From: an uncultured Actinomycetota bacterium
GTDB lineage: Bacteria > Actinomycetota > Actinomycetes > Mycobacteriales > Mycobacteriaceae
Assembly (NCBI GenBank): GCA_963750755.1
Contig: CAVVRW010000005.1
Coordinates: 72,605 to 136,604 of the forward strand
Length of the DNA stretch: 64,000 nt
Direction: 5' to 3'
Both the position numbers and the translations under genes were made by a program. Positions 28,651 through 63,745 of this stretch are shown piece after piece (position 1 is the first letter of the stretch; every line of letters begins with the position of its first letter). The notes under the pieces were generated by a model. The model did not search any database. It was not told the DNA's origin and was given only the letters and a program-made list of their open reading frames with translations.

Positions 28651-29060
28651 CCAGTTTGCCGACCGGCCGGCGACGGCACGAGAAAACGCCCCGCCCAAAT
28701 TTGAACTTTCTATGAATCTGACCACTCAACGCGCGCCGTGATGAAACTTAGGCGCACTATGGGTTACATCTTGCCAATGTTTCCGCCTCGACGGCTTGCC
28801 ACGTAGTAGTGGCTGCGCGAGAGGTTCTGCGGTGCTTACGGGGGTGCGGCGGATCGACTAGCAGTTGATGCCTCGAGTGGCCTTCGCGTGCCCCCGCGCT
28901 TTTGCGCTTACGAAACCGCGTCAGTGGATCTGGCTAGGTCAGCTTCTACAGAAAGGAGAGTTGCGATGTTCTCTGTTGCAGAGCAGACACAGTCGCCCGC
29001 AGCAGCGGCCGACCGCAACCGATCGTGTACCTCAACGTTTCCGAGCTTGGACCGTTGACG

Positions 29061-30281
29061 ATGGACTACGGCGCGTTACCCCCTGAAATCAATTCTGGCA
29101 GAATGTATTCCGGCCCCGGCTCGATGCCCATGCGGGCGGCTTCAGCGGCCTGGAACCTGCTCGCAGCCGAGCTCGAATCGGCCGCTACCCAGTACCAATC
29201 GACGATCGACATCCTCGATGACGAGTGGCTCGGACCGACATCAGCGACAATGGCTGCCGCCGTCGACCCCTACATCGCCTGGATGACCGCGACCGGAGCA
29301 CTTGCCGGCCAGACCGCGGCCCAGGCTTCGGACGCCGCGACTGCCTACGAGGCGGCATTCGCGATGACCGTCCCTCCAATGGAGGTGGCCGCCAACCGCG
29401 CGCAGCTGGCCATGCTGGTCGCGACCAATGTCATCGGCCAGAACACACCGGCGATCGCCGTCAACGAAGCGATGTACGGCGAGATGTGGGCACAGGACGC
29501 CGCTGCCATGTACGGCTACGCCGGGAGCTCGGCGGCGGCATCGGCGGTCAAGCCGTTTACTCAGGCCCCGGAGACGTCCAACCCGGCCGCGCAGGCGATG
29601 CAGGGTTCGGCTGTCAGCCAGGCCAACGGCGCCAGCACCGGGGCCGGCGTGCAGTCGCAGCTGCAGCAGATCACGTCGGCGATCCCTGGCTCGCTGAAGC
29701 AGCTCACCTCGCCGATGTCCGCGGCGGCGGCCAACCCGCAGGGCTGGCTTGGCCAGTTCCTCGACTTCTTGGACGGCGCGGACGGTAACTCCCTCGGAAC
29801 CTTCCTGAACTCCAGCTTCGTGAACGGTTTCGTGTCTGGCTCATACGTCAGCCCCGCGATCGTTACACCCGCGATCACCAGCGGTTTGGCCGACATCAAC
29901 TCGTTGAACCCAGCCGTCGAGTCGGCGCCTGGCGGAACGGGAGTTACCGGACTGATCACGCCGCAACCGCCGGCGCCGCTACCGGCGGCTGTGCCGAATG
30001 TGGGCGTCTCAGTGAACACATCCGGCAGCACGTTGGTCGGCCGGCTGTCCGTCCCGCCTGCCTGGTCGGCGACGGCGCAGGTCGCCAACCACAGCGGGGT
30101 CACCTACGCGGGCGGTGGCTGGACCAACGCGGTGGGACCGGCCGGCGGCGGCACAGGAGCCGTCCCGGCCGGCATGCCGGGCATGCCAGGCGCGTCCGGC
30201 GCGCGTGCCGCCGGCTTCGGCCACGGTCCCCGTTACGGAAACCGGCTGACCGTCATGGGACGTCCGCTGTCGGGTGGCTGA
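29061..30281 (+). CDS. PPE-family protein (SVP subfamily)
   Basis: [21 protein letters not shown] ..., a C-terminal [10 protein letters not shown] motif, and an Ala/Gly/Ser-rich middle. I prefer the start at 29061 to the track start 29025. Confidence 0.9.
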
Positions 30282-30284
30282 GCG

Positions 30285-31154
30285 TCAGCGCCGTTCCAAC
30301 AGCTCGAGCAGGTAGGCACCGTAGCCGGACTTCAGCAGCGACTCGGCGCGCCGGGTCAACTGGTCGTCGTCGATGAAGCCCATCCGCCAGGCCACCTCTT
30401 CGGGAACGCCGACCTTCAGTCCTTGGCGACGTTCCAGGGTGCGAACGTAGTCGCCGGCATCGGCCAGCGAGTCGAACGTCCCGGTGTCCAGCCAGGCGGT
30501 GCCGCGGGCGAGCACCTCGACGGTCAAGCGGCCCTGGTTGAGGTAAGTGCGGTTGACATCGGTGATCTCGTATTCGCCTCGCGCGGAGGGCTTTAGCCCG
30601 CGGGCGATCTCGATCACGTCGTTGCCGTAGAAGTACAAGCCGGGCACCGCGTAGTTCGACTTGGGAGTGGCCGGCTTCTCCTCGATCGACAGCGCCATGC
30701 CGTCGTCGTTGAATTCGACGACACCGTACGCCGACGGGTTGGCGACCCGATAGGCGAATATGGCTCCCCCGTCCAGGTTTTCGAAGCTCCGTAGGTTGGT
30801 ACCCAGGCCCGGGCCGTAGAAGATGTTGTCACCCAACGCCAGTGCCACCGATTGGGAGCCGATGTGGTCGGCGCCGATCAGGAAGGCTTGCGCCAGTCCT
30901 TCCGGTTGATCCTGCACCGCGTAGGTGATGTTGATGCCGAATGCGCTTCCGTCACCGAGCACCCGCCCGAACGCCGGCGCATCGTTGGCGGTGGTGATGA
31001 CCTGAATGTCGCGGATGCCGGCCAGGATCAGCATCGACAACGGGTAGTAGATCATCGGCTTGTCATAGACCGGCAGCAGTTGCTTGCTGACGCCCAGCGT
31101 GATCGGGGCAAGACGCGTTCCCGCGCCGCCGGCCAGGATGATCCCGCGCATCAC
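30285..31154 (-). CDS. rmlA: Glucose-1-phosphate thymidylyltransferase
   Basis: [39 protein letters not shown]. 289 aa. Confidence 0.95.
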
Positions 31155-31160
31155 TTACTC

Positions 31161-31538
31161 CTAGTCGACGAGGTCGGCGTCGGTCAGTTCGGTCGCGGCC
31201 AGCGCTGCTGCCAAGTCGTCGTGACGGAACGCCGAGGTGATGTGGTCGTGGACAACCCGGAAGGCGGACGCGGCGGTGGAGCCGGATTCGCCTGGGCCGC
31301 CGACCTTTTGTTCGACGACGACCACGCCATCGTGAACGAAGATCCGACCGACTTCGACGGTGCGCGGGTGAGCCAGCACCCAGTCACGCAGCGCTGCATG
31401 GCCTTGGGCGGCGCCGTGCGCGTCGCCGACTTCGATGTCGTCGCTGGACAGCGCCAGCAGGGTGTCGGTGTCACCCGCATTCAACGCGTCGTGCCACGCC
31501 AGTACGGTGGCCATCTCCGATGTGGTCATGCAGAGCAA
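31161..31538 (-). CDS. SnoaL/NTF2-like small protein
   Basis: 125-aa ORF with the pattern WHDALNAGDTDTLLALSSDDIEV. The start may instead be the ATG at 31526. Confidence 0.55.
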   Translation of the reverse strand: MLCMTTSEMATVLAWHDALNAGDTDTLLALSSDDIEVGDAHGAAQGHAALRDWVLAHPRTVEVGRIFVHDGVVVVEQKVGGPGESGSTAASAFRVVHDHITSAFRHDDLAAALAATELTDADLVD

Positions 31539-31569: not shown

Positions 31570-32895
31570 TTACGCTACGCGGCGCCCAAGGCAATGTACG
31601 CGCCACCCGGCCCGCTGCCAGCGTTGGACGTCGAGGCAGTTGCGGCCGTCGACCACGACGCGGGAGCGCACCCGGTCGGCGAGCGCGTCGGGGTCGAGCT
31701 CGACGAACTCCGGCCACTCGGTGAGCACCAGCACGGCGTCGGCTCGATCGCACGCTTCCTCAACCGAGACTGCGTAGTTCAGCGTCGGGAAGAGCCGCTG
31801 CGCGTTCTCCAGCGCCTTGGGGTCGAAGACATTGACCGCGGCGCCGTTGAGTTGCAGCTGGCCCGCGACATTGAGTGCCGGCGAGTCGCGCACGTCATCG
31901 GATTCAGGCTTGAACGCGGCGCCGAGAACGGCGATGTTCGCGCCCAACAGGGAACCGCCGCAGGCCTTGGTCGCGAGTTCGACCATCTTGGTGCGGCGCC
32001 GCATGTTGATGTTGTCGACCTCCCGCAGGAAGGTGAGTGCCTGATCCGCGCCGAGTTCCCCGGCGCGAGCCATGAAGGCGCGGATGTCCTTCGGTAGGCA
32101 GCCACCGCCAAAACCCAAGCCGGCGTTGAGGAATCGGCGACCGATCCGCGGGTCATGGCCGAGCGCGTCGGCCAGCAGGGTCACGTCGGCCCCGGCGGCC
32201 TCGCACACCTCGGAGATCGCGTTGATGAACGAGATCTTGGTCGCCAGAAATGCGTTCGCGGAGACCTTTACCAGTTCGGCGGTCTGCAGGTCCGTCACCA
32301 GGAAGGGCAGACCCTCGTCGAGCATCGATGCGTACATCTCGCGGATCGCCGCTTCGGCGCGCATCGAACCATCTTGCACGCCAAGCACAATGCGATCGGG
32401 GTGCAGGGTGTCGTGAATCGCGAAGCCTTCGCGCAGAAATTCCGGGTTCCAGGCCACTTCGACGTCCACTCCGGGGCGGGCCGCAGCGCGTGCCCGCCCG
32501 ACCAGTTCGGCAGCCGTCCCGACCGGGACGGTCGACTTTCCGACGATCACCGAGGGCCGTGTCAAAAGCGGTGCGAGGGTGTCGATTACGGCGTGGACGT
32601 GGCTCAGGTCGGCGCCGTACTCACCGCGCTTTTGCGGAGTCCCAACTCCCAGAAAGTGCACGTCGGCGAACTCGGCGGCCAGGTCGTAGTCGGTGGTGAA
32701 CCGCAATCGGCCCGCTTCGATGTTGTCGCGCAACATCTTTCGCAGACCCGGCTCGTAGAATGGAACGTCGCCGGCAGCCAGCTTGGCGACCTTACCGGGA
32801 TCGATGTCGACACCGACCACCTCGTGCCCCAGTTCGGCCATCCCGGCGGCGTGGGTAGCACCCAGATAACCCGTACCAAAAACGGTGCACCTCAT
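31570..32895 (-). CDS. udgA: UDP-glucose 6-dehydrogenase
   Basis: MRCTVFGTGYLGATHAAGMAELGHEVVGVDID ... GFGGGCLPKDIRAF. 441 aa. Confidence 0.93.
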   Translation of the reverse strand: MRCTVFGTGYLGATHAAGMAELGHEVVGVDIDPGKVAKLAAGDVPFYEPGLRKMLRDNIEAGRLRFTTDYDLAAEFADVHFLGVGTPQKRGEYGADLSHVHAVIDTLAPLLTRPSVIVGKSTVPVGTAAELVGRARAAARPGVDVEVAWNPEFLREGFAIHDTLHPDRIVLGVQDGSMRAEAAIREMYASMLDEGLPFLVTDLQTAELVKVSANAFLATKISFINAISEVCEAAGADVTLLADALGHDPRIGRRFLNAGLGFGGGCLPKDIRAFMARAGELGADQALTFLREVDNINMRRRTKMVELATKACGGSLLGANIAVLGAAFKPESDDVRDSPALNVAGQLQLNGAAVNVFDPKALENAQRLFPTLNYAVSVEEACDRADAVLVLTEWPEFVELDPDALADRVRSRVVVDGRNCLDVQRWQRAGWRVHCLGRRVA

Positions 32896-33008: not shown

Positions 33009-34556
33009 TCAGTGGCCCCAGCCGCCGTGACCTCCGCCACCGAAGCCGCCATGGCCACCTCCGCCGAAGCCGCCACCGCCACTGCCGTGGCCGCCACCGC
33101 CGCCGGGGTAGCCGCCGCCACCGGGATAGCCACCACCACCACCGGGGTAGCCGCCGCCACCACCGGGATAACCGCCACCGCCGTGACCCCACGGACCTTG
33201 GCTTGGACCGCCAAAGATCGGCGGGACGCCGGGAATCGGGATCGGGACCGGGACGACCGCAGGCGGAGCTGCCGGCGCCGCCGGCGGCGGGGCCGGAGCG
33301 GGTGGCGGTGCTGCCGGCTCGGGGGCCGGAGCGGGCGCGGCGGGAGCGGGTGCCTGAACGACGGGCTCGGGTGCCGGCGCTGCGGGCGCTGGCGCGGGAG
33401 CTTCGGGAGCCGGCGCTGGCGCCTCCGGTGCCGGCGCGGGAGCTTCGGGAGCCGGAGCCGGCGCAGACGCTGGTGCCGGGGCCGCCGGCGCGGCGGGGGC
33501 CGGCTTAGCGTTGTGACCGGGGTCGGGACGGGTGGCAGCGGTTGGCCGCATGCTGACCGCCAGCGCGACCAGCAGCGCCGCGGCACCGACCACGAAAAGT
33601 GCCGCGACAGCGCTCGCCACCAGGAAGAGCGGCCTGCGGCCGCCCTCGGGCTGGGCTTCGGCGACCCCGGTGTAGAGGCCGGTCTCCGCTTCGCTCTCGT
33701 CGGCGAGTGCGGTGTATGCGTCGTCGCCGTCGGCAACCGCGCTGTAGGCCAGCGCCTGCTCACCGGTCTTGACGTCGGTCGCGGCGTCGAAGTAGCCCGG
33801 CGCGACGGCGTAAGGGTTGATGAAGCCGGTGCCGGGGTCTTGCGCGTACGCCAGGGCTTCGGTTGACGAGGTGAACAGCGGGGCATTCGCCGATGCCAAC
33901 GCCGCGCCGCGGGCCAACGCGGTCTCGGGCTCCTCGGGAGCGCTGACGATCAGGCCGGTCGCGGCCTCCAGCCGCGGCTTGAGCGCGGCGACGTCCACGC
34001 CGCCCGAGCCGACGAGGAACAGTCCGTCGGGACGAACACCCAATGAGTCCGCGCCCGACGCCAGCGCAGCGAGCTCGGTAGTCGGGTCGCCCCCTGGGGT
34101 GAGCGGCTGGCGGCGCACGTCGGTGATCGATCCGTCGGCGCTGTTGACGACGGCCAGCGTCGCGGTGTCGGGCTCGACGAAGAGCAGGCCGGTCTGGGCG
34201 TATCCCACAGAGTTGCCGACGACCTGAGCCAGCGCCGCGGCGGCCATGAACGACGACACCAGCATCACGTTTTCGACCTTGCGTGCGGCCAACGCGTCGC
34301 GGAGAGCAGCGGCCTCGACCGGATCGGTCCAGGTCACACCGATCGAACGCAAGTCGTAGCCGCTGTCGACGGCACCCTCCTGGGTGCCGAGAATCGCGGA
34401 CACCACCTGGTCGGCCGCGTTGATCGTCGGCGCATCAGCGGCCGCGTTGACGTTGAAACCGTCCTCGTCGACGGTTGCGCCGTCGGCATTTTCACCCTCG
34501 ACGAGAACCATGCGGACCGCAGTGGGTGCCATCGAGACACCAAGTACGGTGTCCAC
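33009..34556 (-). CDS. Membrane-anchored protein: degenerate Hsp70/actin-like N-domain, one TM segment, Pro/Ala-rich linker, Gly/His/Tyr tail (paralog 1 of 3; possibly DUF7159-like)
   Basis: 515 aa. GTG start preceded by GGAGGA. MDTVLGVSMAPTAVRMVLVEGENADG. The TM segment reads LFLVASAVAALFVVGAAALLVALAV. The tail reads GGGGYPGGGGGYPG ... GGHGGWGH. Confidence 0.7.
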   Translation of the reverse strand: MDTVLGVSMAPTAVRMVLVEGENADGATVDEDGFNVNAAADAPTINAADQVVSAILGTQEGAVDSGYDLRSIGVTWTDPVEAAALRDALAARKVENVMLVSSFMAAAALAQVVGNSVGYAQTGLLFVEPDTATLAVVNSADGSITDVRRQPLTPGGDPTTELAALASGADSLGVRPDGLFLVGSGGVDVAALKPRLEAATGLIVSAPEEPETALARGAALASANAPLFTSSTEALAYAQDPGTGFINPYAVAPGYFDAATDVKTGEQALAYSAVADGDDAYTALADESEAETGLYTGVAEAQPEGGRRPLFLVASAVAALFVVGAAALLVALAVSMRPTAATRPDPGHNAKPAPAAPAAPAPASAPAPAPEAPAPAPEAPAPAPEAPAPAPAAPAPEPVVQAPAPAAPAPAPEPAAPPPAPAPPPAAPAAPPAVVPVPIPIPGVPPIFGGPSQGPWGHGGGGYPGGGGGYPGGGGGYPGGGGYPGGGGGHGSGGGGFGGGGHGGFGGGGHGGWGH

Positions 34557-34686
34557 TTTTCCTCCAAAGCTGCTGCTCGCTGACCGAATGTGGAGCGGCG
34601 GGTTGATCGCCAGTAGTAGTTACTACAACGATACCGATCCGCCGGACCGGGCGGCTATGGGTTGTTTGCCCTATAGCCCGGGCGCG

Positions 34687-36147
34687 TTAGTGGCCGTGGC
34701 CGCCGAAGCCTCCGTGACCCCAGCCACCGCCACCGTGACCCCAGCCACCGCCACCGCCGCCGTGACCCCAGCCTTCGTCCCCGTGACCCCGCGGACCACC
34801 CCACGCGGGAGGCGGCGGAGCGAGCCCGGGGATGCCCGGGAGGATCGGCGCGAACGGTATCGGGATTGGGGCCGGCACAACCGCCGGCGGCGGCGCCGGC
34901 GCGAAGACGGGCGGCGGCGCAGGAGCCGGGTGGAACACCGGAGCCGGAGCGGGAACCGCCGCGGGGGCCGGGGCCGGTGCCTGCACGGGTGCGGCCACGG
35001 GAGCGGGGGCCGGAGACGGCGCGGGCGCCGGAGCCGGGATCGCTCGAGCCGGGGCCACCACATTGTGGCTCAGGCTGGGCCGGGTGTTGGCCGAGGGACG
35101 GATGCTGAACGCCAGCGAGATCACCAGTCCCATCACGCCGGTGACGAAGACCATCAGCACACTCATCGCCACCAGGAACGGCTTGCGGCTCTCTCGCTCC
35201 TGCTCGAGCCGATTGAAATCGGGATACATCCCGGTGGTGAAGTCTTCGTGCTCCTCGCCACCGACATAGGCGTCGGGGCCCAGCTGCGTGTAGACCGCGG
35301 CGGAGTCATCGGCGACGGCGCTGTAGGCCAGCGCATCCGCACCCGCGTCAGGGCTGGGCACCGCCGCTTGCGCGACGGCCAGATAGCCCGGCGCGTCGAC
35401 GTGTTGGCTCAGGGAACCGGTGCCGGGGTCCAGCGCGTAGGCGAGTGCGGCGGTCGACGACGCGAACAGGGGAGCGTGGGCCGAGGCCAGGGCCGCGCCC
35501 CGGGCCAGTGCGGTCTCGGGGTGATCGGGCACGCTCAGCGGCAGCGAGGTGGCGGTCTCCAGAGCCGGCTTGATCAGCGGGATGTCGACCCCGGAACCAA
35601 CCACGATCAGGCCTTCGGGCCGCTCTTCGAGTCCCTCGGCACCGGAAACCAGGTTGACCAGCGTGGCGACGGCCTGGTCGTCGTCGTCGGGCAACGGCTC
35701 GCGCTGGACGTCAATGATCGAGCCGTCGGCGGTGTTGACGACCGCAAGCGTGGCGTTGTCCGGCTCGACGTAGAGCAGCGCGCTGCGCGCGTACCCGGTC
35801 GCACTGCCGAGCGACTGCGCCAGCGCGGCCGCGGCCAGGAACGACGACACCAGCATCACGTTCTCGACCTTGCGCGCGGCCAGCGCGTCGCGAAGCTCCG
35901 CCGCGGCCCGCTGGTCGGTCCATGTCACGCCGGTCGACCGCAGTGCATAACCGGCCTCGTCGGCGCCCTCGCGGGTACCAAGAATCGCCGAAACGACCTG
36001 ATCTGGCCCGCTAAATGTTGCCGGGTCTTCGTCGCCGGTGACCGCGATGTGATCCTCGTCGACGGTTGCTCCGTCGGCGTTTTCCCCCTCGACCAGCACT
36101 ACGCGGACCGTCGTGGGCGCCATCGATACACCAAGTACGGTGTCCAC
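34687..36147 (-). CDS. Membrane-anchored degenerate Hsp70/actin-like protein (paralog 2 of 3)
   Basis: I prefer the start VDTVLGVSMAPTTVRVVLVEGENADG (GTG at 36147, GGGAGGA Shine-Dalgarno) to the track start 36216. The tail reads GWGHGGGGGGWGHGGGGWGHGGFGGHGH. Confidence 0.7.
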   Translation of the reverse strand: MDTVLGVSMAPTTVRVVLVEGENADGATVDEDHIAVTGDEDPATFSGPDQVVSAILGTREGADEAGYALRSTGVTWTDQRAAAELRDALAARKVENVMLVSSFLAAAALAQSLGSATGYARSALLYVEPDNATLAVVNTADGSIIDVQREPLPDDDDQAVATLVNLVSGAEGLEERPEGLIVVGSGVDIPLIKPALETATSLPLSVPDHPETALARGAALASAHAPLFASSTAALAYALDPGTGSLSQHVDAPGYLAVAQAAVPSPDAGADALAYSAVADDSAAVYTQLGPDAYVGGEEHEDFTTGMYPDFNRLEQERESRKPFLVAMSVLMVFVTGVMGLVISLAFSIRPSANTRPSLSHNVVAPARAIPAPAPAPSPAPAPVAAPVQAPAPAPAAVPAPAPVFHPAPAPPPVFAPAPPPAVVPAPIPIPFAPILPGIPGLAPPPPAWGGPRGHGDEGWGHGGGGGGWGHGGGGWGHGGFGGHGH

Positions 36148-36362
36148 AGTTCCTCCCGCTACTTTGCTAGTCGTCCGCGGGCCATCTGAGATGCACGCCG
36201 AGTCGGCGGCTAACACAGAAGGTATCGCCGCTTCGGATCGCGGCGTTACTACTGCGGACTTTGCTGTGCCCTACGAAGACGTCACCAGGAGCAACGGTCG
36301 AACGATGCCCCCCGGCCGACCTTCGGAGTTCACTTTACCTTGCCGCGCAACCCGCAACAGGG

Positions 36363-38267
36363 CTAGTGGTGGCCGCCGCCAAATCCGCCGCCAAATCCGC
36401 CGCCGTGGCCGCCGCCGAAGCCCCCGCCACCGTGCCCGAAGCCACCACCTCCGAAGCCACCACCTCCGAACCCGCCTGGGCTGTGCCCGCCGCCGAACCC
36501 GCCTGGACCGCCACCAAAAACTCCGGGACCGCCACCAAAACCCCCCGGACCGCCGCCAAACCCTCCGGGACCGCCGCCAAGACCGGGGTTGCCACCAAAG
36601 CCTCCAGGGCCACCACCGACGCCGGGGTTGCCGCCAAAGCCGCCCGGACCGCCAAATCCGCCGGGCCCATTACCCGGCGGATTGAATGACGGTCCCTGCG
36701 GCGGGCCGCCGGGAGGTGAGAGGCCCGGTATGCCGAGTCCCGGCAATCGGAGTCCCGGCAATCCGGGAAGTAGCGGAGGCGCCTGGGGAGCCGGGAGGTG
36801 CCCGGGCTCCGAGCCTGGGAATTGCACCGGCGGCCGCGGAGACACGATCGGCACCGGATTCTGCGGCTCGGGCACGTGCACAGGCGGCTGCGGCGCCGGC
36901 CAATGAACCGGCGGCTGCTGCACCGGGTCCGGAACCTGGGCGGGCGGCGGCGAGGGCACGTGCACCGGGATATGGACCGGAGCCGGGGCGCGCACCGGAA
37001 TCGGGATGGGGAGAGGGACCACCACCGGCGCAGGAGCGGGTGCCGGTGGCGCAACCGGAATCGGTGCCGGCGCAGCGGGAATGGGCAGCGCGGGAGCTGG
37101 GGCGGCGGGCGCCGGAACCGGCACCGCCGCGTGTACGGGAGCGGGCACCACCGCCGGCACGATCATGTGGTTGACCGCCGGCGCTGGTGCGCTCGCCTGA
37201 ACCGGCGCCGAAACGGGTGCCGGCGACTGGATGATGAGATTCTGCAGCGGTCGGGGCAACATCGCCACGTTAGGGCGAATGCCAAGTGCCAGAGCAACTT
37301 CCAGTGAGAGTGCGGCGGCGACGAAGATCACGGCGAGGATGCTGCCGACGAGGACCAGTGGACCCCGCTGGCGGCCGCTGTCGAGATGCTCGACGTTCAA
37401 CACCTCCTGTTCGACAGTGTGGGCGTCGGCTTCCTCATCCGGAACGGCGCTGTAGGCAAGGTCGTCTTCACCCAGCGGTGTGCCGAGCGGAACATCCGGC
37501 GCCACAAGGTATCCCGGCGACACGGCGTAGGGATCGACCGCTCCGGTGCCGGGATCCAGGGCGTAGGCCAACGCCGCGGTCGACGACGCGAATAGCGGAG
37601 CGTTCGCCGACGCCAGCGCCGCACCCCACGCCAACGCGGTCTCGGGATCTTCGGCCGCCGTGATGGGAAGGGTCGTCACCGCCTCCAGTTGTGGCTTGAT
37701 CGCGGCGACGTCCACGCCGGAGCCGACGATGAACACGCTCTGCGGTTGCGTCTCCAGTTCCGCTAAATTCGCCACCATCGCAGCCAACTCGGTGACGCTG
37801 TGGCCGTTCGACATCAGCTCTTTGTGGACATCGGTGATGGATCCGTCGGCGGAGTCGACGACGGCCAGCGTCACGGTGTCCGGCTCGAGGAACAGCAGGG
37901 CGGTGTGCGCGTCGCCGACCGTGCAACCAACCGTCTGCGCCAGGGCGGCGGCGGCCATGAAGGACGACACCAGCATCACGTTCTCGACCTTGCGAGTGGC
38001 CAGGGCGTCCCGCAGCGCGGCGGCGTCGATCGGATTCGTCCACGTGACGCCCGTCGAGGTCAAGGCATGACCGGCCTCGGCGGCGCCTTCGCGGGTGCCC
38101 AGGATCGCCGAGATCACCTGGTCGGCGGCGCTGAGCGTCGCCGCGTCGTGGTCGGTCGTGATGCCGAACGTTGAATCCTCAACTGTCACGCCGTCGGCAT
38201 TTTCACCTTCGACCAGCAGCATCCGAACCGACGTGGGAGCCATTGAGACCCCGAGCACGATGTCCAC
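36363..38267 (-). CDS. Membrane-anchored degenerate Hsp70/actin-like protein (paralog 3 of 3)
   Basis: I prefer the start VDIVLGVSMAPTSVRMLLVEGENADG (GTG at 38267, GGGAGG Shine-Dalgarno) to the track start 38345. It has a long Pro-rich linker and GGPGGFGG repeats ending GGGHH. Confidence 0.7.
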   Translation of the reverse strand: MDIVLGVSMAPTSVRMLLVEGENADGVTVEDSTFGITTDHDAATLSAADQVISAILGTREGAAEAGHALTSTGVTWTNPIDAAALRDALATRKVENVMLVSSFMAAAALAQTVGCTVGDAHTALLFLEPDTVTLAVVDSADGSITDVHKELMSNGHSVTELAAMVANLAELETQPQSVFIVGSGVDVAAIKPQLEAVTTLPITAAEDPETALAWGAALASANAPLFASSTAALAYALDPGTGAVDPYAVSPGYLVAPDVPLGTPLGEDDLAYSAVPDEEADAHTVEQEVLNVEHLDSGRQRGPLVLVGSILAVIFVAAALSLEVALALGIRPNVAMLPRPLQNLIIQSPAPVSAPVQASAPAPAVNHMIVPAVVPAPVHAAVPVPAPAAPAPALPIPAAPAPIPVAPPAPAPAPVVVPLPIPIPVRAPAPVHIPVHVPSPPPAQVPDPVQQPPVHWPAPQPPVHVPEPQNPVPIVSPRPPVQFPGSEPGHLPAPQAPPLLPGLPGLRLPGLGIPGLSPPGGPPQGPSFNPPGNGPGGFGGPGGFGGNPGVGGGPGGFGGNPGLGGGPGGFGGGPGGFGGGPGVFGGGPGGFGGGHSPGGFGGGGFGGGGFGHGGGGFGGGHGGGFGGGFGGGHH

Positions 38268-38381: not shown

Positions 38382-38954
38382 TTAAGTGGACCTTATGAAA
38401 TTTAAATAGGACTTCGAGGGCGTCGGTCCGCGCTGCCCTTGGTACTTCGATCCGACCACCGCACTGCCGTACGGATGCTCGGCCGGACTGGTCAACCGCA
38501 GGATGCACAACTGCCCGATCTTCATCCCGGGCCACAACGTGATTGGCAGGTTCGCAACGTTCGACAGCTCCAAGGTGATGTGGCCGCTGAAGCCAGGGTC
38601 GATGAAGCCGGCCGTCGAGTGGGTCAGCAGGCCCAGCCGTCCGAGCGACGATTTGCCTTCCAGGCGTCCGGCCAGATCCTCGGGCAGCGTGCACGTCTCT
38701 AACGTCGACCCGAGCACGAACTCCCCTGGGTGCAACACGAATGGCTCACCTTCGCGTGGCTCGACCAGGGTGGTCAACTCGTCCTGCTGCTGCGCGGGGT
38801 CGATGTGGGTGTAGCGGGTGTTGTTGAAGACCCGAAACAAGCTGTCGAGGCGGACGTCGACGCTGGACGGCTGGACCAATGCGTCGTCGAACGGATCGAT
38901 TCCCAACCGGCCGGCGGCGATTTCGGCTTTGAGATCGCGATCGGATAGCAGCAC
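38382..38954 (-). CDS. dcd: dCTP deaminase
   Basis: [37 protein letters not shown] ... [20 protein letters not shown]. 190 aa from the GTG at 38954. The track ORF is over-extended upstream through the tRNA-like region. Confidence 0.95.
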
Positions 38955-39010
38955 GCGACGAGCGTAGCCGCTTGGTTGAGGCGCGAGTGCTCGCCTTGCC
39001 AGGCAACATT

Positions 39011-39098
39011 GCCGATGTAGTTCCATGGCAGAACAGCAGCTTCGCAAGCTGTCGGCCAACCGCACCCGCGCGGGTTCGAGTCCTGCCGCGGGCATTTC
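39011..39098 (+). other. Degenerate tRNA-like sequence (chimera): the 5' part resembles tRNA-Gly, then an 18-nt insert, a T-arm and a poorly pairing acceptor 3' strand
   Basis: GCCGATGTAGTTCcATGGCAGAACAgCAGCTTCgCAAGCTG matches the tRNA-Gly at 39988 at 38 of 41 positions. Next come tcggccaaccgcacccgc and GCGGGTTCGAGTCCTGC CGCGGGCA. Only 5 of 7 acceptor pairs form, and the anticodon would be CGC. Confidence 0.5.
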
Positions 39099-39987: not shown

Positions 39988-40058
39988 GCCGATGTAGTTC
40001 AATGGCAGAACATCAGCTTCCCAAGCTGAATACGCGGGTTCGATTCCCGTCATCGGCT
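39988..40058 (+). tRNA. tRNA-Gly (anticodon CCC)
   Basis: It folds by hand. Acceptor GCCGATG/CATCGGC, D-arm GTTC..GAAC, anticodon arm TCAGC-TTCCCAA-GCTGA, 4-nt variable loop, T-arm GCGGG-TTCGATT-CCCGT, discriminator T. Only CC (not CCA) follows. Confidence 0.92.
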
Positions 40059-40060
40059 CC
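40018..40060 (+). repeat. 43-bp direct repeat, left copy (the 3' part of tRNA-Gly); candidate attL
   Basis: TTCCCAAGCTGAATACGCGGGTTCGATTCCCGTCATCGGCTCC is identical to 43949-43991. Confidence 0.85.
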
Positions 40061-40101: not shown

Positions 40102-41377
40102 TTAGGGTTCGCGTTTTTTCTTTGGGCGGCCGCAGGGCACGCCGCGGGGTTGATAGTCCCTGGTCGGATCCAGGGTGAGCTGGCGGAGGAGTTCGCCGGT
40201 GGCGGCGTTGATAATTCGGATGTCGAGGTCTTGGACGAGCACGAGGACACGAGTGCTCGCGTGGGTTCGGCCGACGCCGATGTGGTGCAGGCGGCCGGCG
40301 TGGCGCAGGGTGAGTTTTCCGAATTGGTCGATGCGATCGGTGCGGACCCGGTTGTGGGTGTCGATGCGTTGCCCGGGGGTGGCTTTGGGCCGGGCGGTGT
40401 AGGCGGTGGCGCGGTGTGGCAGTTCGCGGTGTGGGCGGCGGCGGTTGTAGATCTCGACGTAGGCGTCGAGCTGGGTCTGCAGCTCGTTGATTATCGCCGC
40501 TTTGGGTTGGCTGGTGAGCCACTTCTTGAGGGTCTGGTGAAAGCGCTCCACTTTCCCGCAGGTGGTCGGGTGATTGGGGCTGGAGTTGATCTGAGTCACC
40601 CCAAGGCGGCGCAGTTCGTTCTCGAGGTGGTTGCGCCCACATTTGCCGCCGGCGAATCGGGTGGTGAAGACCATGCCGTTGTCGGTGAGTGTGGAGGCCG
40701 GAATGCCGTGTGCCGCACAGGCTGTGCGGAATGTGGCGAGCACGATCGAGCCGGTGACGCGGGCGTGGGCGGTGACCGAGAGCGCGTAGCGGGCATGGTC
40801 ATCGAGCCAGTTGAGGATCTCCACATGAGTCCCATTGGCCAGCCACCAGTGGGTGAAGTCGGCCTGCCAGCGTTCGTTGGGTTGTTCGGCGGCACATCGA
40901 ATGTAGGACGACTTGGGCCGCTTCTGCGGGGTCGGGGTGATCAGCCCGGCCGCCCGTAGGTGGCGGTGGATCGACACCGGCGACACCGCCAGCTCGTGAT
41001 GGTTTCCAGGTGCCAGGCAATGGTGTGGGGGCCGTGGTCGAGCCCTTTGCTCGACAGCTGGTTGCGCAGGTCGATGATCAGATCGAGGGTGGACTGCGGT
41101 AACCGGCCGGGCTGGTCTGCGGGCGACGTGACCGTGGTTCGAAGGCAGCCGCACCCTCGCGGCGATAACGGGCCACCAGGCGGCTGATCCAGCCCTGAGA
41201 GACCCCGTACTCGCGGGCTACCTCGGATTGGCTGCGGCCCTCGACAACAACAGCGGTGATGACCAGACGAGAGACACAGTGCCCGCGTGGCCGGAACTGC
41301 ATCTTCCTGCCTGGAAGACGGTCGATCAGCGCGGTCAACGGGGGGGTCGCGGATTTATTGGCGCCCGAGTCAGCCAC
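40102..41377 (-). mobile_element. IS481-family (DDE, integrase-core) transposase gene, decayed by two frameshifts
   Basis: The N-terminal HTH is in ORF 41078..41377. The DDE core (ERWQADFTHW ... TDNGMVFT ... CGKVERFHQTLKKW) is in ORF 40102..41154. The segment LPQSTLDLIIDLRNQLSSKGLDHGPHTIAWHLE lies in the third frame. I found no matching terminal inverted repeats. Confidence 0.8.
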
Positions 41378-41429: not shown

Positions 41430-43766
41430 CTACGGGTGTGCGCCCCGCGCGAGAAGGTCGATCACCGCGGATGCCGTGATCGGTGAACTGTAGTAGAAGC
41501 CTTGTGCGAAGTCGCAGCCGTAGTCACGCAAGGCGGCCGCGGTTTCTGCGCTTTCGACGCCCTCGGCGGTTGTTGTCACTCCAAGCTCGTGCGCGAGGTC
41601 GACGACCGCGCGGACGATCGCCGCAGCGCGGGGATCGACCAGGATCGGCGCGATGAAGTCCCTGTCTAGCTTGACTTCATCGATGGGCAGCTCACGCAGG
41701 TAGCGCAAGGCCGAATAGCCGCTGCCGAAGTCATCAAGCGCGACGCCGATGCCGTGCCCGCGCAACGTGGCCAGCATGGCGCGGGCGCGTCCAATGTCCT
41801 CCACCAGCAAGTCTTCGGTGATCTCGATGATCAAGGCGTCCGCGGCCAGTTCGTGGCGGGCCAGCGCATCCACGATGTGCGCGGCCATAGTCACGTCTGA
41901 CAGCGACGCGGCAAAAAGGTTGACGCACACCGGGATGCGCGCGCCCCGGCGGTGCCAAAGGATGGCATCATTGAGGGCCTGCGCCAGGACCCGCTCGGTG
42001 ACGGCGCGCATCAGGCCGTGCTGGCGCACCAGCGGCAGGAACTGCTCCGGGCGCAGCAGGCCACGGTCGGGATGAGGCCAGCGCACCAAGGCTTCCACAC
42101 CGACAATCTCCCCGCTGCGCAGGTCGTACTTCGGTTGATACACCGTGACCAAGTCCCGCCGGTCGACCGCCTGTCGCAGCTCGCCGAGCAGTCGCACGGC
42201 GACGGCACCGTCGTGCGCCGATTTCCCGTCAAACTCGTGCGGTCGAGCGCGTTCCTCGACCGCAAGAAACTCCATCCCCGCACTGAACGTCTGCAGGCCG
42301 CCACTGCGTAACCTTTTGGCCGCATACATGGCGGCGTCGGCCTGTTGGAGCAAGGCCTCGGCCCGCAGGTGGACATCGTCGGGCGAGGCTACCGCCAGCC
42401 CGAAGCTGGGCCGCGCCAACAGCTTCTGACCAGAGAGCTCAAACGGTGTGTTGAAGGCCTCGGCGATCCGGCGGGCGACCAGATGGCAGTTCTCGCCTCC
42501 TCCCTCGATCACGACGGCGAACTCGTCACCGCCAACCCGGGCCACTGTGTCGCCGGCTCGGACACAGCCAACGAGTCTTTGCGCGGCCGCTTTGAGCAGC
42601 GCGTCGCCCGCCGAATGCCCCATGTTGTCGTTGATGAGTTTGAAATCGTCGAGGTCCAGCGACAGCACCGCGACGGGGCGCTGATCGCGGCGATGCATTT
42701 GCACGGCGTGCGCCAGACGTTCGTTGAACATCGTGCGGTTGCCCACGCCGGTCAGCGGGTCGTGCAAGGCCTCGTCCGCCACTATGCCTAATAGCCGCCG
42801 ATTGTCGGCGAGTGCCACGAATTGGCGTACCAAAATCGCCATCACCACAAACACTCCGACGCCGAGCACCGGACCCGTTTGCAAGCTGGAGCGATGGCCC
42901 ACGGCGATAGTCGCAGCTGCCGCAATGAACGGCAGATAGGGCAGCCACAGCGACACCGGCGCCGGCAGCGGTGTCGCCGGCGCTGACGCGTCAGACGGCG
43001 ATGCCCGCAAACTGAGCAGGGCTGCCAGGCCCAACGTCAGCATGGCCACCGCCCACCCGATCGCGGGCAGCTCACCGCCGCCATGGCTGGCGACAGTCCC
43101 GACAAAGGCGGTGCTTGAGACGGCCATCAGCGCGAGCCCGCCGGTGAGTAGCGTCAGCGTCAGCCGCTGCCGCGTGCGCGCGCGGGCCAGCACCAGGATT
43201 GCCACGGTCAGGGTCACAATGTCGGCAGCCGCATGCGCCAGCGAATAACTCAGCACGGCACTGTCGGCGCGGTCGACCGCGTACACGCGGTTCAGCACGA
43301 CCGCCCAGGCCACCAGGAACAGTGATCCCGCAACAATCAGCCCGTCGAACACCAGACGCGCTTGAGACTGACCCTCATATCCGACGGGAAACGACACCAG
43401 CGCCGCACACCCCGCAATGGGCAGAAGGAATCCGACTATTATCGGCGACGAGAAGGGGGCCGCGTCCATCCCGCGACTCAGCCCGTAGTAGGTCCATGTG
43501 ACTACACCGATGACCCAGCCCCACACCCCAGTGGCCAAAAATACCCACGCCCGCCGTTGCCGCCCCCGGGCCTTGCGCGCCGCCAACCCGGCACTGACCG
43601 CCGCGAACGTTGCGAAACCCGACAAGCCGAGATCGTTGACAGCACGGGTCACCCACGGCCCACCCCACCCCCCGATCCGCCATGCCGCGAACCCAGCGCC
43701 TGCGGCGGCTGGGAGCGCCGCCATGGACACAACCCCCGTCAGAGGCCCCCGCGATACTGCAGACAA
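41430..43766 (-). CDS. Multi-pass membrane sensor with GGDEF (diguanylate cyclase) and EAL (c-di-GMP phosphodiesterase) domains
   Basis: 778-aa ORF with about 9 N-terminal TM segments, ARVGGDEFAVV, and EALVRWPH ... DDFGSGYS. Confidence 0.9.
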   Translation of the reverse strand: MSAVSRGPLTGVVSMAALPAAAGAGFAAWRIGGWGGPWVTRAVNDLGLSGFATFAAVSAGLAARKARGRQRRAWVFLATGVWGWVIGVVTWTYYGLSRGMDAAPFSSPIIVGFLLPIAGCAALVSFPVGYEGQSQARLVFDGLIVAGSLFLVAWAVVLNRVYAVDRADSAVLSYSLAHAAADIVTLTVAILVLARARTRQRLTLTLLTGGLALMAVSSTAFVGTVASHGGGELPAIGWAVAMLTLGLAALLSLRASPSDASAPATPLPAPVSLWLPYLPFIAAAATIAVGHRSSLQTGPVLGVGVFVVMAILVRQFVALADNRRLLGIVADEALHDPLTGVGNRTMFNERLAHAVQMHRRDQRPVAVLSLDLDDFKLINDNMGHSAGDALLKAAAQRLVGCVRAGDTVARVGGDEFAVVIEGGGENCHLVARRIAEAFNTPFELSGQKLLARPSFGLAVASPDDVHLRAEALLQQADAAMYAAKRLRSGGLQTFSAGMEFLAVEERARPHEFDGKSAHDGAVAVRLLGELRQAVDRRDLVTVYQPKYDLRSGEIVGVEALVRWPHPDRGLLRPEQFLPLVRQHGLMRAVTERVLAQALNDAILWHRRGARIPVCVNLFAASLSDVTMAAHIVDALARHELAADALIIEITEDLLVEDIGRARAMLATLRGHGIGVALDDFGSGYSALRYLRELPIDEVKLDRDFIAPILVDPRAAAIVRAVVDLAHELGVTTTAEGVESAETAAALRDYGCDFAQGFYYSSPITASAVIDLLARGAHP

Positions 43767-61207: not shown

Positions 61208-61256
61208 TCTGGCGTAAAGAACGGCGACGTGCCGCAGAAAGCGTTTGAACAGCGCC

Positions 61257-61640
61257 TTAGGAGGCGTCGTCGGGACGGTCGAGCACGCTGACCGCGATCC
61301 CGTAGGGCAGGAACCGGACTTTGCGGGCCGGGTCGGTGCTGTTCTGGTTTGCGCGCAGGGCGTCGAGCTCGGTGGCGTACACCTCTTCGACACGCGCGAC
61401 ACCGTCGGTGCTGACCGTGTAGATCGCCCACACCCCGTCGCCGGCTTCGCCGGCGGTCTCGGGCCGCGTCCGTGGGCGGCGCGTCAAGTCTTCGAAGACC
61501 GACGACCACCCCGCCCGCTCGCCGGGGAACGTGAGGAACCTGCCGACACCCTCGAAGACCTCGCGGAGACCCTCGGTCGCGTCCCGGAGAATGTGCTCGA
61601 AATCTTCCGGCTCGAATCCGAACCGACCGTTGTCATCCAT
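61257..61640 (-). CDS. Conserved hypothetical acidic protein
   Basis: The start MDDNGRFGFEPEDFEHIL is preferred. About 127 aa. It lies immediately downstream of the Hsp70-like gene. Confidence 0.55.
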   Translation of the reverse strand: MDDNGRFGFEPEDFEHILRDATEGLREVFEGVGRFLTFPGERAGWSSVFEDLTRRPRTRPETAGEAGDGVWAIYTVSTDGVARVEEVYATELDALRANQNSTDPARKVRFLPYGIAVSVLDRPDDAS

Positions 61641-61708: not shown

Positions 61709-63745
61709 CTAATAGCCGTAGCCAGGGCCGGCGTAAGGGTTCTGCGGCATGTACGGGCTCTGCTGGTAGGGATTCTGCTGGTAGGGGCTCTGCTGATACG
61801 GATTCTGGTAGGAGTTCTGCGGCTGCTGCTGGCTCGCCCCACCCTGGCCTTCGGGAACCTGCACCGGGATCGGCACCGGCACGAACGGCAGATTCAGGTA
61901 CGTCGTCGTCATCGCCGGCGCCGTCGAGGTGCTCGCCGGTGGGGGTGGAGGCGGCGTCGTGCTCGGGGTGGTGCTAGTCGCCTGCGGGGTGGTGGTGGTC
62001 GTCGGCTGCGGCACGGTCGTGGTGGCCTGCGCCGTGGTGCGCGGCGGCGCGTAGGTCTGCACGGGCGCCGGAGCCGGTGCGGGCGCGGGAGGAGGCGGGG
62101 GCACCTCGCTGGTCGGTGGAGGAGGCGGGGGCACCTCGCTGCTGGGCGGCGGAGGCGGCGGGACGGGGCTCGAGGACGGCAACTGGGAACTTGCCGGAGG
62201 CGGTGGCGGCGCCGGAGTGCTGCTGCTGGGCAGCGTTGGTGCGCGATTGCTGCTGGTCAACGTGAAGGCGACACCGCCGATCGCGACCATCGACACCAGT
62301 GCGGCCAGCCCCAGGAACAGCTGAGGCAGCCGCGTTCCGCGCCGCCGAACCGGGTCGATCGGGGTGACTCTCGGCAGCTGCATCAGCTGCGACGGAGTCG
62401 CGCGGTCGTCGATGGCGTACGGCTCACCGGTGTAGACGACCGGCTCGTCGTCGGAGTCGTCGGCCTGCGACCAGGCCAGCTCGGTCAGGCGCTCCGAGGG
62501 GTCATCGAAAAGCGCGCCGGCGGTGGGAATGTCGAACGTGCCGGTCGAAGCGGTGAACGCGCCGGTGGAGGTTCCCATTTCGTCGGTCGGCGAGCCGAAT
62601 CGCCCGGTGGTGGCCAGACCGCCGGTCGAGGTCGCGAAACTGCCGGTAGAGGCTCCCACCAGCGCCGCCATCGTGGTCTCTTCGCGTCCCCCGGCCCGCT
62701 GCGCAATGGGCTGGCGGGCCGAGAGCTTCACGGCCCCGACGGCCGTCGCGAGCGCCGGCTGAGTGGCGGTGATCACCGACGACTTGGTGTGCATCGAAAG
62801 ACGCTGGGCGACAAGAGGAATCTTGGCCGTACCGCCGGCCATCGCCACGGCTGCGAGATCCTTACCGCGAATCCTGTTGCGGCGCAACATGTCGTCGAAG
62901 GCGGCGAACAGATCGTCGAGCCGGCCGTCGATCAGACCGTCGAGTTCAGCCCGGCTGACCTCGAGTCGGTTGCGCTGACCGGGCAGGTCGAGGGCCAGTT
63001 CGGTCGTCTTCTCGCTGGAAAGCCGCTCCTTGGCGAGTTGGCATTCCTGGCGCAGCCCGGCGAATTGCGCGACGACGGCGGTGCTGGCCGGGTCAACGCC
63101 GTCGCCCTGTCCGGCATTGTCCAGCGCGTGCAGCATCAGCGCCTGATCAACCAGGTCACCGGAGAAGTCGTCAAAACGCAGAGTGTCGGTGATCGGGGTG
63201 AAGTCCGATGCGGCGTCCGCCAGGGTGATGCTGGTGCCGCTGCCGCCGAAATCAAGCAGCGCGACAATGCCCTTGGCGGGCAACCGGGAATCGGCGTTCA
63301 GCGCGGTCAGCGCGGCAACCGAATCGGGCACCAGCCGCGGCGACATGCCGCCGTGGACGAAGTCGCCGTGGGTATTCAACGCGGCCTGCACGCCCCGCAG
63401 GGCTTCCGGGCCCCAGTGCGCCGGAACGGCCATCGTGATGTTCGAGGTCGCGGCTTCCCCGCCGGCCTCGTTGATCAGCGCGTCCAGTGCCTCGACCAGT
63501 AACAGTGACGGGTCGTGGCTCGACCCGTCACTGGATTTCAATGGTTTCGACCGGCCGACCCGCTCGACGAATCCCGTCATGAGCGTGCCGGTGCCGTCAA
63601 TGTCCGAATCATCCTCGGGTATACCAAGTTCCGGCGCACGGTCTGGGAAAAGAGTCAGCACCGCGCGACGCGAGACGGGTGGTTTACCGTTGCGGACCGC
63701 GACTAAGTTTGTGGTCCCGATCGATAACCCCAACGGGTCATACAT
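61709..63745 (-). CDS. Membrane-anchored Hsp70/actin-like ATPase-fold protein with a Pro/Thr-rich linker and Gln/Tyr/Pro-rich tail (possibly Rv0312-like)
   Basis: 678 aa. LGLSIGTTNLVAV, LLDFGGSGTSITLAD and MAGGTAKIPLV resemble the Hsp70 phosphate-1, phosphate-2 and adenosine motifs. The TM segment reads LFLGLAALVSMVAIGGVAFTL. The tail reads QNPYQQSPYQQNPYQQSPY. Confidence 0.75.
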   Translation of the reverse strand: MYDPLGLSIGTTNLVAVRNGKPPVSRRAVLTLFPDRAPELGIPEDDSDIDGTGTLMTGFVERVGRSKPLKSSDGSSHDPSLLLVEALDALINEAGGEAATSNITMAVPAHWGPEALRGVQAALNTHGDFVHGGMSPRLVPDSVAALTALNADSRLPAKGIVALLDFGGSGTSITLADAASDFTPITDTLRFDDFSGDLVDQALMLHALDNAGQGDGVDPASTAVVAQFAGLRQECQLAKERLSSEKTTELALDLPGQRNRLEVSRAELDGLIDGRLDDLFAAFDDMLRRNRIRGKDLAAVAMAGGTAKIPLVAQRLSMHTKSSVITATQPALATAVGAVKLSARQPIAQRAGGREETTMAALVGASTGSFATSTGGLATTGRFGSPTDEMGTSTGAFTASTGTFDIPTAGALFDDPSERLTELAWSQADDSDDEPVVYTGEPYAIDDRATPSQLMQLPRVTPIDPVRRRGTRLPQLFLGLAALVSMVAIGGVAFTLTSSNRAPTLPSSSTPAPPPPPASSQLPSSSPVPPPPPPSSEVPPPPPPTSEVPPPPPAPAPAPAPVQTYAPPRTTAQATTTVPQPTTTTTPQATSTTPSTTPPPPPPASTSTAPAMTTTYLNLPFVPVPIPVQVPEGQGGASQQQPQNSYQNPYQQSPYQQNPYQQSPYMPQNPYAGPGYGY

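Follow-up and report, generated by a model that had tools for sequence, protein, structure and literature searches.

The genes treated here belong to the protein family DUF7159 (a domain of unknown function; Pfam PF23717), one ortholog of which has published regulation. In a 2026 study of M. abscessus, in which chromatin immunoprecipitation sequencing (ChIP-seq) gave GTAACA/G-N16-CGAT as the sigma-D promoter, the DUF7159 gene MAB_4296c was among the nine most sigma-D-dependent genes, being 3.2-fold down in the sigD deletion and having a ChIP peak with a score of 173 in its upstream intergenic region, and the next gene, MAB_4295c (udgA), was co-regulated at 3.6-fold, all within a regulon described as envelope-directed (PMC13537577). 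A second described protein, the bitopic Hsp70-like MSMEG_0692/Rv0312, is one of 25 proteins specific to FhaA complexes that had been cross-linked (PMC11898655). Our subject is a 64,000-nucleotide stretch of DNA (the window) from an uncultured member of the Mycobacteriaceae (GenBank assembly GCA_963750755.1, contig CAVVRW010000005.1, positions 72,605 to 136,604), in which three DUF7159 genes, termed P1, P2 and P3, lie between udgA and dcd. We judge it probable, on balance, that their products are sigma-D-controlled, envelope-spanning scaffolds tied to UdgA, with much less certainty as to the particular partner.

A preliminary description of this DNA, made from the sequence alone, had reported three co-directional paralogs in this interval, each beginning (M/V)D(T/I)VLGVSMAPT.VR..LVEGENADG, and open reading frames and alignment bear this out. 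Pairwise identity among the three is 61-63% over the full length and 63-68% across the first 240 amino acids (aa), and no additional DUF7159 copy was found within the 64-kb window. The genes and their flanks are as follows:

31570..32895, minus strand: udgA (UDP-glucose 6-dehydrogenase; Pfam), 113 nt downstream of P1
33009..34556, minus strand: P1, DUF7159 paralog of 515 aa, nearest udgA (open reading frame; PF23717 E 3.2e-17; ratio of non-synonymous to synonymous substitution rates, dN/dS, 0.05-0.27 against orthologs)
34687..36147, minus strand: P2, DUF7159 paralog of 486 aa, in the middle position (open reading frame; PF23717 E 2.3e-15)
36363..38267, minus strand: P3, DUF7159 paralog of 634 aa, nearest dcd and with the longest tail (open reading frame; PF23717 E 1.1e-17)
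38382..38954, minus strand: dcd (dCTP deaminase; Pfam DCD E 8.9e-46), the upstream flank

P1-P3 are ordinary members of their catalogued family, matching PF23717 at 57.3-64.8 bits (gathering cut-off 27 bits; E 2e-15 to 1e-17) over profile positions 1-198/206. A protein search of 5.8 billion sequences returned more than 3,100 relatives, and a separate search of representatives at the 50%-identity level gave 769 clusters; in the former, the named matches, among the 120 listed, are all Mycobacterium, and the closest named relative among the matches listed is a M. paraterrae 'DUF7159 family protein' at 94% identity. The same architecture, namely the domain, a linker of ~80 aa, a transmembrane (TM) helix and a Pro-rich tail of 52-416 aa, recurs in 77 of 90 diverse long representatives. 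The earlier statement that this architecture had no assigned function is outdated, insofar as the family is catalogued and the regulation of one ortholog is published, but it holds to the extent that the function of DUF7159 is uncharacterised.

The N-domain and its Hsp70 relatives

The region of about 330 aa that the preliminary description took for a shared N-domain has a folded part of only ~225 aa, the remainder being a disordered, conserved linker of ~85 aa. The folded parts match the ASKHA superfamily (acetate and sugar kinases, Hsp70 and actin), that of P1 being 68% identical to those of both P2 and P3:

33882..34556, minus strand: P1 minimal ASKHA domain, aa 1-225 (AlphaFold2 model, Foldseek, hhalign)
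35470..36147, minus strand: P2 ASKHA domain, aa 1-226 (Pfam match residues 2-226)
37596..38267, minus strand: P3 ASKHA domain, aa 1-224 (Pfam match residues 2-224)

The AlphaFold2 (AF2) model covers P1 residues 1-345 and was built from an input alignment of 117 sequences. Its predicted local distance difference test (pLDDT) is mostly above 90 over residues 1-225, and its topology is beta-beta-beta-alpha-beta-alpha-beta-alpha twice in tandem, i.e., the ASKHA core with lobes IA and IIA only. DSSP assigns to the first lobe of the model E2-9, E13-20, E28-35, H47-64, E68-76, H79-91, E97-101 and H102-117, and to the second lobe E121-127, E131-138, E144-151, H158-171, E178-183, H189-199 and H210-224. 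When the model was compared with the PDB using Foldseek, 499 matches were obtained at E<=1e-3, the best 50 of which were all ASKHA proteins, with EutJ, Mlc/ROK kinases, ManNAc kinase, HgdC-type activators, PilM, Ppx/GppA, PanK-III and YeaZ as best matches (probability 1.00, E 4e-9 to 4e-7, target-normalised TM-score at most 0.54). A profile search against PDB sequences gave ASKHA proteins in 11 of its 12 matches; the sequence-only matches to MreB, CoA-enzyme activase, Sse1/Hsp110 and AlfA were weak (E 0.07-1.6) and always fell on the last strand-loop-helix-helix. The model thus shows the N-domain of ~225 aa folding as a minimal ASKHA core, the fold that the preliminary description had proposed and set as its test.

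Direct sequence routes from DUF7159 to Hsp70 are weak. P1-P3 have no PF00012 match at E<=1, their NCBIfam match to HscA/MreB is poor (E 0.03-0.05, last 50 aa), phmmer and profile searches against PDB sequences reach only E 0.07-0.23 over the last 45-65 aa, and hhalign of DUF7159 with an Hsp70-like protein encoded elsewhere in the window, or with the family of that protein, aligns the C-terminal 50 aa only, at 1.2% and 51% probability, respectively. A forced global alignment with the latter family was out of register and was rejected. The link to Hsp70 is therefore decisive only via an intermediate, the Nocardia type, a family of bitopic proteins from Nocardia, Rhodococcus and Antrihabitans that surfaced in loci retrieved with dcd as the query and that match PF00012 at 46.5 bits against a cut-off of 20.6 bits. 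In 16 of 19 Nocardiaceae loci their gene directly follows udgA on the same strand, and in one further locus it comes directly after dcd. The alignment of DUF7159 with the Nocardia type by hhalign has a probability of 99.2-99.7% (E 5e-20) and pairs residues 1-225 with residues 2-287, with a single gap of ~65 aa that corresponds to the DISGDY...AKEQLSS segment, lobe IIB; a reversed-column control gave 0.4%. The Nocardia-type family in its turn aligns with the family of the window's Hsp70-like protein at 99.7%. Judged by these profile alignments, the DUF7159 N-domain is homologous over its full length to the udgA-linked, membrane-anchored Hsp70-family proteins; compared with these, lobe IIB and the canonical Asp and Gly of the phosphate-binding motifs are missing from it.

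The losses can be followed residue by residue. With the Nocardia type as reference, the Asp of YDLGSSG has become Phe126, the Gly/Ser loop Glu-Pro-Asp and IGGCARIP the VGSG(G)VD of DUF7159. Counted by alignment columns over 44 diverse DUF7159 members, the place of the phosphate-1 Asp in Hsp70 and actin (position 8) holds Ser in 42 and Asp in none; position 126, which pairs with the YDLG Asp, holds a hydrophobic residue (Phe, Leu, Tyr or Val) in all 44; the phosphate-2 loop reads E-P-D; and the connect-1 Glu is kept in 14 members, none of them P1-P3. The last helix, E-P-E-x-A-L-A-R-G-A-A-L-A, is nearly invariant. The replacement of the glycine-rich nucleotide-binding residues claimed earlier is upheld by these counts, as are the three motif correspondences that had been drawn by eye with DnaK and the Hsp70-like protein of the window: these fall on the opening hairpins of lobes IA and IIA and on the adenosine strand-loop-helix, and their register is correct, since the full-length hhalign alignment to the Nocardia-type relative reproduces them. 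Past residue 225 there is no substrate-binding domain, only the disordered linker, the TM helix and a low-complexity tail. From its sequence, the N-domain may reasonably be taken for a pseudo-ATPase.

Two representatives of the family, P0125 and P0147, have a DUF7159 N-domain with two or three second-lobe repeats fused to a MacB/LolD-type ABC-transporter ATPase; these may be genuine fusions, which would hint at a functional partner, or merged gene calls.

The Hsp70-like protein of the window is located far from the array:

61709..63745, minus strand: Hsp70-like protein, 678 aa, with a full-size nucleotide-binding domain (NBD), one TM helix and a Pro/Thr/Gln tail (PF00012 E 5.7e-16)

It matches Hsp70 NBDs of the PDB at E 1.9e-8, its TM helix is at 476-494, and it is probably of the Rv0312/MSMEG_0692 type. 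Its phosphate-1 motif is GLSIGTT, with Ser where Asp is usual, its tail has the motif PFVPVPIPV, and a cutinase gene (60491-61402) comes after it. In M. shinjukuense (AP022575, locus L082, 10001-13504), closely related to the M. tuberculosis complex, an Hsp70-like membrane gene is directly followed by a DUF7159 gene (Pfam E 9e-11), which in turn precedes a gene with an Rv0313_N domain, so the two families can also be neighbours. Because DUF7159 there occupies the slot before the Rv0313 homolog, the correspondence of the two families to Rv0312 and Rv0311 is ambiguous; size, Thr-richness, the 'ATP binding' annotation and the name of the M. lentiflavum Hsp70-like protein favour the Hsp70-like type for Rv0312, and we infer that MSMEG_0692/Rv0312 belongs to this sister family and not to DUF7159.

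Linker, membrane anchor and tails

Hydropathy and composition agree with the preliminary description in giving each protein one TM helix, a Pro/Ala linker beyond it and a Gly/His tail:

33624..33881, minus strand: P1 disordered juxtamembrane linker, aa 226-311 (pLDDT below 50; residues 228-311 disordered in the AF2 model; conserved motif)
33552..33623, minus strand: P1 TM helix, aa 312-335 (Kyte-Doolittle 2.79; AF2 helix 312-335)
33012..33551, minus strand: P1 tail with a Pro/Ala stalk, VPVPIPIP, then Gly/Tyr/His repeats (P 28%, G 26%, A 22%; tandem DNA repeats of 21-39 nt)
35113..35184, minus strand: P2 TM helix, ~aa 322-345 (Kyte-Doolittle 2.58)
34690..35112, minus strand: P2 tail with a Pro/Ala stalk, VPAPIPIP and IPGL motifs and GWGHGGGG repeats (composition, repeats)
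37293..37370, minus strand: P3 TM helix, ~aa 300-325 (Kyte-Doolittle 2.78)
36366..37292, minus strand: P3 tail of ~310 aa with a Pro-rich stalk, VPLPIPIP and GGFGGGP/GGFGGGH repeats (composition, repeats)

In each protein the single hydrophobic helix (Kyte-Doolittle 2.6-2.8) is preceded by RR or RK, and the N-part before it is acidic, with 43-50 Asp and Glu against 9-16 Lys and Arg; no signal peptide was found. Based on the lack of a signal peptide, the acidic N-part of ~300 aa, the cytoplasmic nature of ASKHA folds and the Arg pairs before the helix, the proteins are predicted to be oriented with the N-terminus inside and the C-terminus outside.

The linker carries the motif P-L-F-x-S-S-T232-x-A-L-A-Y-x-x-D-P. 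A strict regular expression for it matched only one of 77 sequences, and column counts were used in its place, by which T232 is present in 42, L235 in 34 and Y237 in 33 of the 44 members; such conservation would suit a short linear motif or a site of phosphorylation. The tails, of 140-310 aa, are 25-28% Pro and 17-26% Gly with 6-12 His residues, finish in Gly/aromatic/His repeats and are encoded with in-frame tandem DNA repeats of 12-42 nt. A PhiP-x-PIP-Phi / IPGLPG motif occurs in the tails of 26 of 86 representatives (1 expected) and is shared with the Hsp70-like sister families (15 of 41; 0 expected). At the end of the P2 tail (34690-34800), the GWGHGGGG / GWGHGGFGGHGH repeats resemble the copper-binding PHGGGWGQ octarepeats of the prion protein; the P1 and P3 tails end in His too, and other DUF7159 subfamilies have no conserved His in their tails.

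Distribution of the locus and the sigma-D promoter

The distribution of the family was examined in 80 dcd-anchored loci across the Mycobacteriales and beyond, together with M. paraterrae; the sample holds no locus of the M. tuberculosis complex. Wherever a mycobacterial locus has dcd as well as udgA (22 of 22), one to four DUF7159 copies lie between the two, beginning directly downstream of dcd: one copy in fast-growing Mycolicibacterium-type genomes and in Mycolicibacillus, two in Mycolicibacter, and two to four in slow-grower-type genomes, with four in M. colombiense and M. vulneris. None was found between dcd and udgA in the sampled loci of Nocardia, Rhodococcus, Gordonia, Tsukamurella or more distant genera, and a hidden DUF7159 gene in the interval of Nocardia and Prescottella was rejected, the genes there being unrelated (a permease and a sugar transferase). 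In a neighbour-joining tree, the single-copy genes fall outside the multi-copy clades, and within the clade of the window P3, P2 and P1 each form an orthogroup common to at least six species-level genomes, including M. paraterrae, where the gene order is dcd, three DUF7159 genes, udgA. Since it is present in all sampled mycobacterial genomes, the dcd-udgA DUF7159 locus is probably ancestral to them, with only its copy number being lineage-specific. All copies and segments have dN/dS values of 0.05-0.40 against orthologs in three related genomes, and this purifying selection marks the three copies as real, functional genes. The earlier view of the triplet as an accessory expansion consequently falls, the locus being conserved in every sampled mycobacterium and the triplet not peculiar to this genome.

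A more divergent DUF7159 paralog (53-63% identity) is located upstream of dcd in some relatives (L001 8043-8756, minus strand; L006 984-1709; L021 91-813; L022 1986-2675); in the window, a tRNA-Gly, an integrase gene and a GGDEF-EAL gene occupy this place.

The sigma-D motif known from M. abscessus has an exact match in the array:

36224..36249, minus strand: candidate sigma-D promoter, GTAACG-N16-CGAT, 77 nt upstream of the P2 start

This is the only occurrence in the 64 kb, against 0.16 expected. In 1.48 Mb of related loci there were 15 exact motifs, 14 of which were 39-83 nt upstream of a DUF7159 start and on the correct strand. In thirteen loci besides the window the motif stands 71-83 nt upstream of DUF7159 genes; it is present at the P2 orthologs of the window's clade and in 11 of the 13 loci with a single copy. 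When 14 upstream regions were aligned, the -35 and -10 elements and the ribosome-binding site were invariant and the spacer between them was variable. Inside the array, sigma-70-type promoters and intrinsic terminators were not above chance, and operon structure is accordingly read only from gene spacing and the M. abscessus data; as there are no above-chance terminator-like sites between P2, P1 and udgA, read-through from the candidate P2 promoter into P1 and udgA is plausible. In the sigma-D-driven leaders of DUF7159 genes, (C/T)AGCAAAC is also conserved ~12 nt before the Shine-Dalgarno sequence (window 36160-36175), the rest of the leader being variable.

All three genes have GTG starts with a GGAGG-type Shine-Dalgarno sequence 3-5 nt 5' of them (GGAGGA for P1, GGGAGGA for P2, GGGAGG for P3), and this spacing, together with a first fold strand that begins at residue 2, indicates that the GTG starts of the preliminary description are right. 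In M. paraterrae (CP092488.2, locus L081, 8349 and 10001) the public calls for the P2 and P1 orthologs begin at Met9, 24 nt (8 codons) past the GTG, with which most of strand beta-1 would be lost; the call for the P3 ortholog begins at the GTG.

GC content gives no sign of a foreign island. Past udgA are a SnoaL-like gene (31161-31538, minus strand), rmlA (30285-31154, minus strand) and a PPE-SVP gene (29025-30281, plus strand); in M. paraterrae, an MDMPI-family gene that the window does not have stands between udgA and the SnoaL gene. Beyond dcd is a tRNA-Ala(CGC) (39010-39095, plus strand), which is atypical by its length of 84-86 nt and its Rfam score of only 41.9 bits. A tRNA-Gly(CCC) (39988-40060, plus strand) is then directly followed by an rve-family integrase gene (40102-41154), ~1.1 kb beyond dcd, and the adjoining integrase suggests an insertion sequence (IS) or integrative element at the tRNA-Gly; a GGDEF-EAL gene (41430-43766) comes next. 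An Rfam scan of 28-42 kb found nothing besides the two tRNAs.

Possible function and comparison with known systems

In the reading of P1-P3 as scaffolds that we prefer, DUF7159 would be expressed with udgA within the sigma-D cell-envelope programme, and the N-domain would stay in the cytoplasm with the tail outside. The N-domain would no longer hydrolyse ATP and may act as a nucleotide-independent protein-binding or oligomerising scaffold at the inner membrane face, as ASKHA proteins of the TsaB/YeaZ, PilM or FtsA type do. The Pro-rich stalk, if rigid, would project a sticky terminal segment into the wall, and gene duplication would mainly have diversified the outside tails. Several points weigh against this reading. 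The evidence that links DUF7159 to udgA is genomic and transcriptional only. Neither P1 nor P3 is preceded by a sigma-D motif, including in searches that tolerated a single mismatch or a spacer of 16-17 nt, and the 3-4-copy arrays of M. avium-complex-like genomes have no exact match. The loss of ATP binding is read from sequence only, and the conserved G183-x-G186 and acidic E128/D130 loop could support a non-canonical nucleotide or metal site. The AF2 model shows no docking of the conserved linker onto the N-domain. Finally, the orientation comes from prediction alone, and the one surface-biotinylation proteome of biofilm cells that contains MAB_4296c is noisy and also holds cytosolic proteins.

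The same evidence can be weighted differently. One possibility, which we hold to be unlikely, is that the outside tail is the functional part, serving in adhesion, biofilm formation, wall cross-bridging or the capture of Cu/Zn/Ni, with the ASKHA domain doing hardly more than anchoring it; the three copies would then supply alternative Pro/Gly/His-rich segments exposed at the surface. The tails are far more divergent than the N-domains, their tandem repeats are prone to expansion, and the GWGHGGGG repeats of P2, the His at all three ends, the enriched PIPIP-type motif (26 of 86 against 1 expected) and the biotinylation record of MAB_4296c could all be read this way; yet the His residues are not shared by the tails of other subfamilies, the tails are under purifying and not diversifying selection, and the N-domain and linker are the most conserved parts (dN/dS 0.05-0.22, with T232 and A-L-A-R-G-A-A-L-A nearly invariant), which would be unexpected of a mere anchor. 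Quite unlikely, in our estimation, is an active non-canonical ASKHA kinase or ATPase, or a nucleotide-dependent switch, that regulates UdgA. Membrane tyrosine kinases are paired with Ugd enzymes elsewhere (Wzc-Ugd in Escherichia coli, YwqCD-YwqF in Bacillus subtilis), which offers a functional analogy, and such a regulator would suit the tight conservation of the udgA pairing across Mycobacteriales (DUF7159 in mycobacteria, the Hsp70-like TM gene in 16 of 19 Nocardiaceae), the co-regulation with udgA in M. abscessus, the fold matches to sugar kinases (ROK, ManNAc kinase) and the conserved G183-x-G186, E128 and D130. A catalytic role is opposed by the absence of the Asp of both phosphate motifs in all 44 members, the disappearance of the Gly-rich loops, the deletion of lobe IIB, which closes over adenosine, and the lack in P1-P3 of a ROK zinc motif or any Pfam kinase match.

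The scaffold could also be a more specific one, i.e., an actin-, FtsA- or PilM-like polymerising or peptide-binding component of the elongation or division machinery, recruited through phosphorylation of the linker Thr and forkhead-associated (FHA) proteins in a clade without MreB and FtsA. FHA domains prefer pT-x-x-(I/L/V), which T232 with its Leu at +3 (S-T-x-A-L-A-Y) resembles, and the best structural matches include EutJ, PilM and MreB-type proteins. The related MSMEG_0692/Rv0312 is, in addition, specific to cross-linked FhaA complexes (PMC11898655), but that datum concerns the sister family, to which MSMEG_0692 is itself assigned by inference, and actin-like filaments as a rule depend on lobes IB and IIB and on nucleotide, none of which is present in DUF7159; we regard this version as very unlikely. 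A broader proposal, in which DUF7159, the Rv0312 type and the Nocardia type together constitute Mycobacteriales-wide, envelope-spanning pseudo-Hsp70/actin-fold scaffolds that couple UdgA and UDP-glucuronate supply, and the FhaA-linked elongation machinery, to the wall, partly filling the role of FtsA and MreB under sigma-D, strikes us as quite improbable as it stands. That the triplication is a recent strain-specific accessory amplification, or consists of decaying copies, has virtually no probability left: it could draw on the variation in copy number from one to four between lineages and on the IS-type integrase ~1.1 kb beyond dcd, but the orthogroups shared by at least six species-level genomes, M. 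paraterrae included, and the purifying selection on every copy rule it out, and the paralogs are only 61-68% identical in a region whose GC content has no foreign island.

Through its Hsp70 descent, udgA linkage and sigma-D promoter, a bare 'DUF' becomes a testable hypothesis of envelope homeostasis, for a family that sits in one of the few strongly sigma-D-dependent operons of M. abscessus and has two to four copies in slow-growing lineages. The N-domain boundaries, the linker Thr232, the PIPIP tail motif and the promoter provide experimental handles. If the proteins are indeed scaffolds, they would represent a new kind of envelope-spanning organiser, in bacteria without MreB and FtsA.

Among known systems, TonB and RodZ offer an architectural analogy only, each having a cytoplasmic or membrane anchor and a long, rigid, Pro-rich extracytoplasmic spacer, with sequence and fold unrelated to DUF7159. 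TsaB/YeaZ, PilM, FtsA and EutJ, which are among the structural matches, are small ASKHA cores like the DUF7159 N-domain and serve as partner-binding modules, PilM and FtsA at the membrane; the relationship is at the level of fold only, none of them crosses the membrane as an integral bitopic protein or carries a Pro-rich tail outside it, and PilM, FtsA and EutJ bind nucleotide, which DUF7159 as we read it would not. With the DnaK NBD, DUF7159 shares the ASKHA fold, the order phosphate-1, connect-1, phosphate-2, adenosine, connect-2 and the P-x-x-A-x-A-x-G-A-A signature; unlike DnaK, it is membrane-anchored and is without the substrate-binding domain, lobe IIB and the catalytic Asp/Glu residues. 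The Rv0312/MSMEG_0692 type, represented in the window by the protein at 61709-63745, has the bitopic architecture and the PFVPVPIPV tail motif in common with DUF7159 and is homologous to it via the Nocardia type, but retains a full-size NBD of ~345 aa with GTT, DFGGSG and GGTAKIP and matches PF00012 directly. In the Nocardia type the likeness extends to the N-terminus (MSSVLGVSVGAGAIR vs MDTVLGVSMAPTAVR), the last helix (PADPETVIVRGAAL vs PEEPETALARGAAL), the RRR-TM segment, a Pro-rich tail with a VVPGLPPIVVP-type motif and the adjacency to udgA; unlike DUF7159, it keeps lobe IIB, the YDLGSSG phosphate-2 motif and IGGCARIP, its gene is downstream and not upstream of udgA, and no sigma-D-like motif was found upstream of it. 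Finally, of the family catalogued as PF23717, or as 'DUF7159 family protein' at NCBI (M. paraterrae, MAB_4296c), P1-P3 are direct members with no structural difference. What that annotation lacks, to our knowledge, is the full-length homology to udgA-linked Hsp70-like proteins with its deletion of lobe IIB, the udgA linkage across Mycobacteriales, and the conservation of the sigma-D promoter across mycobacteria.

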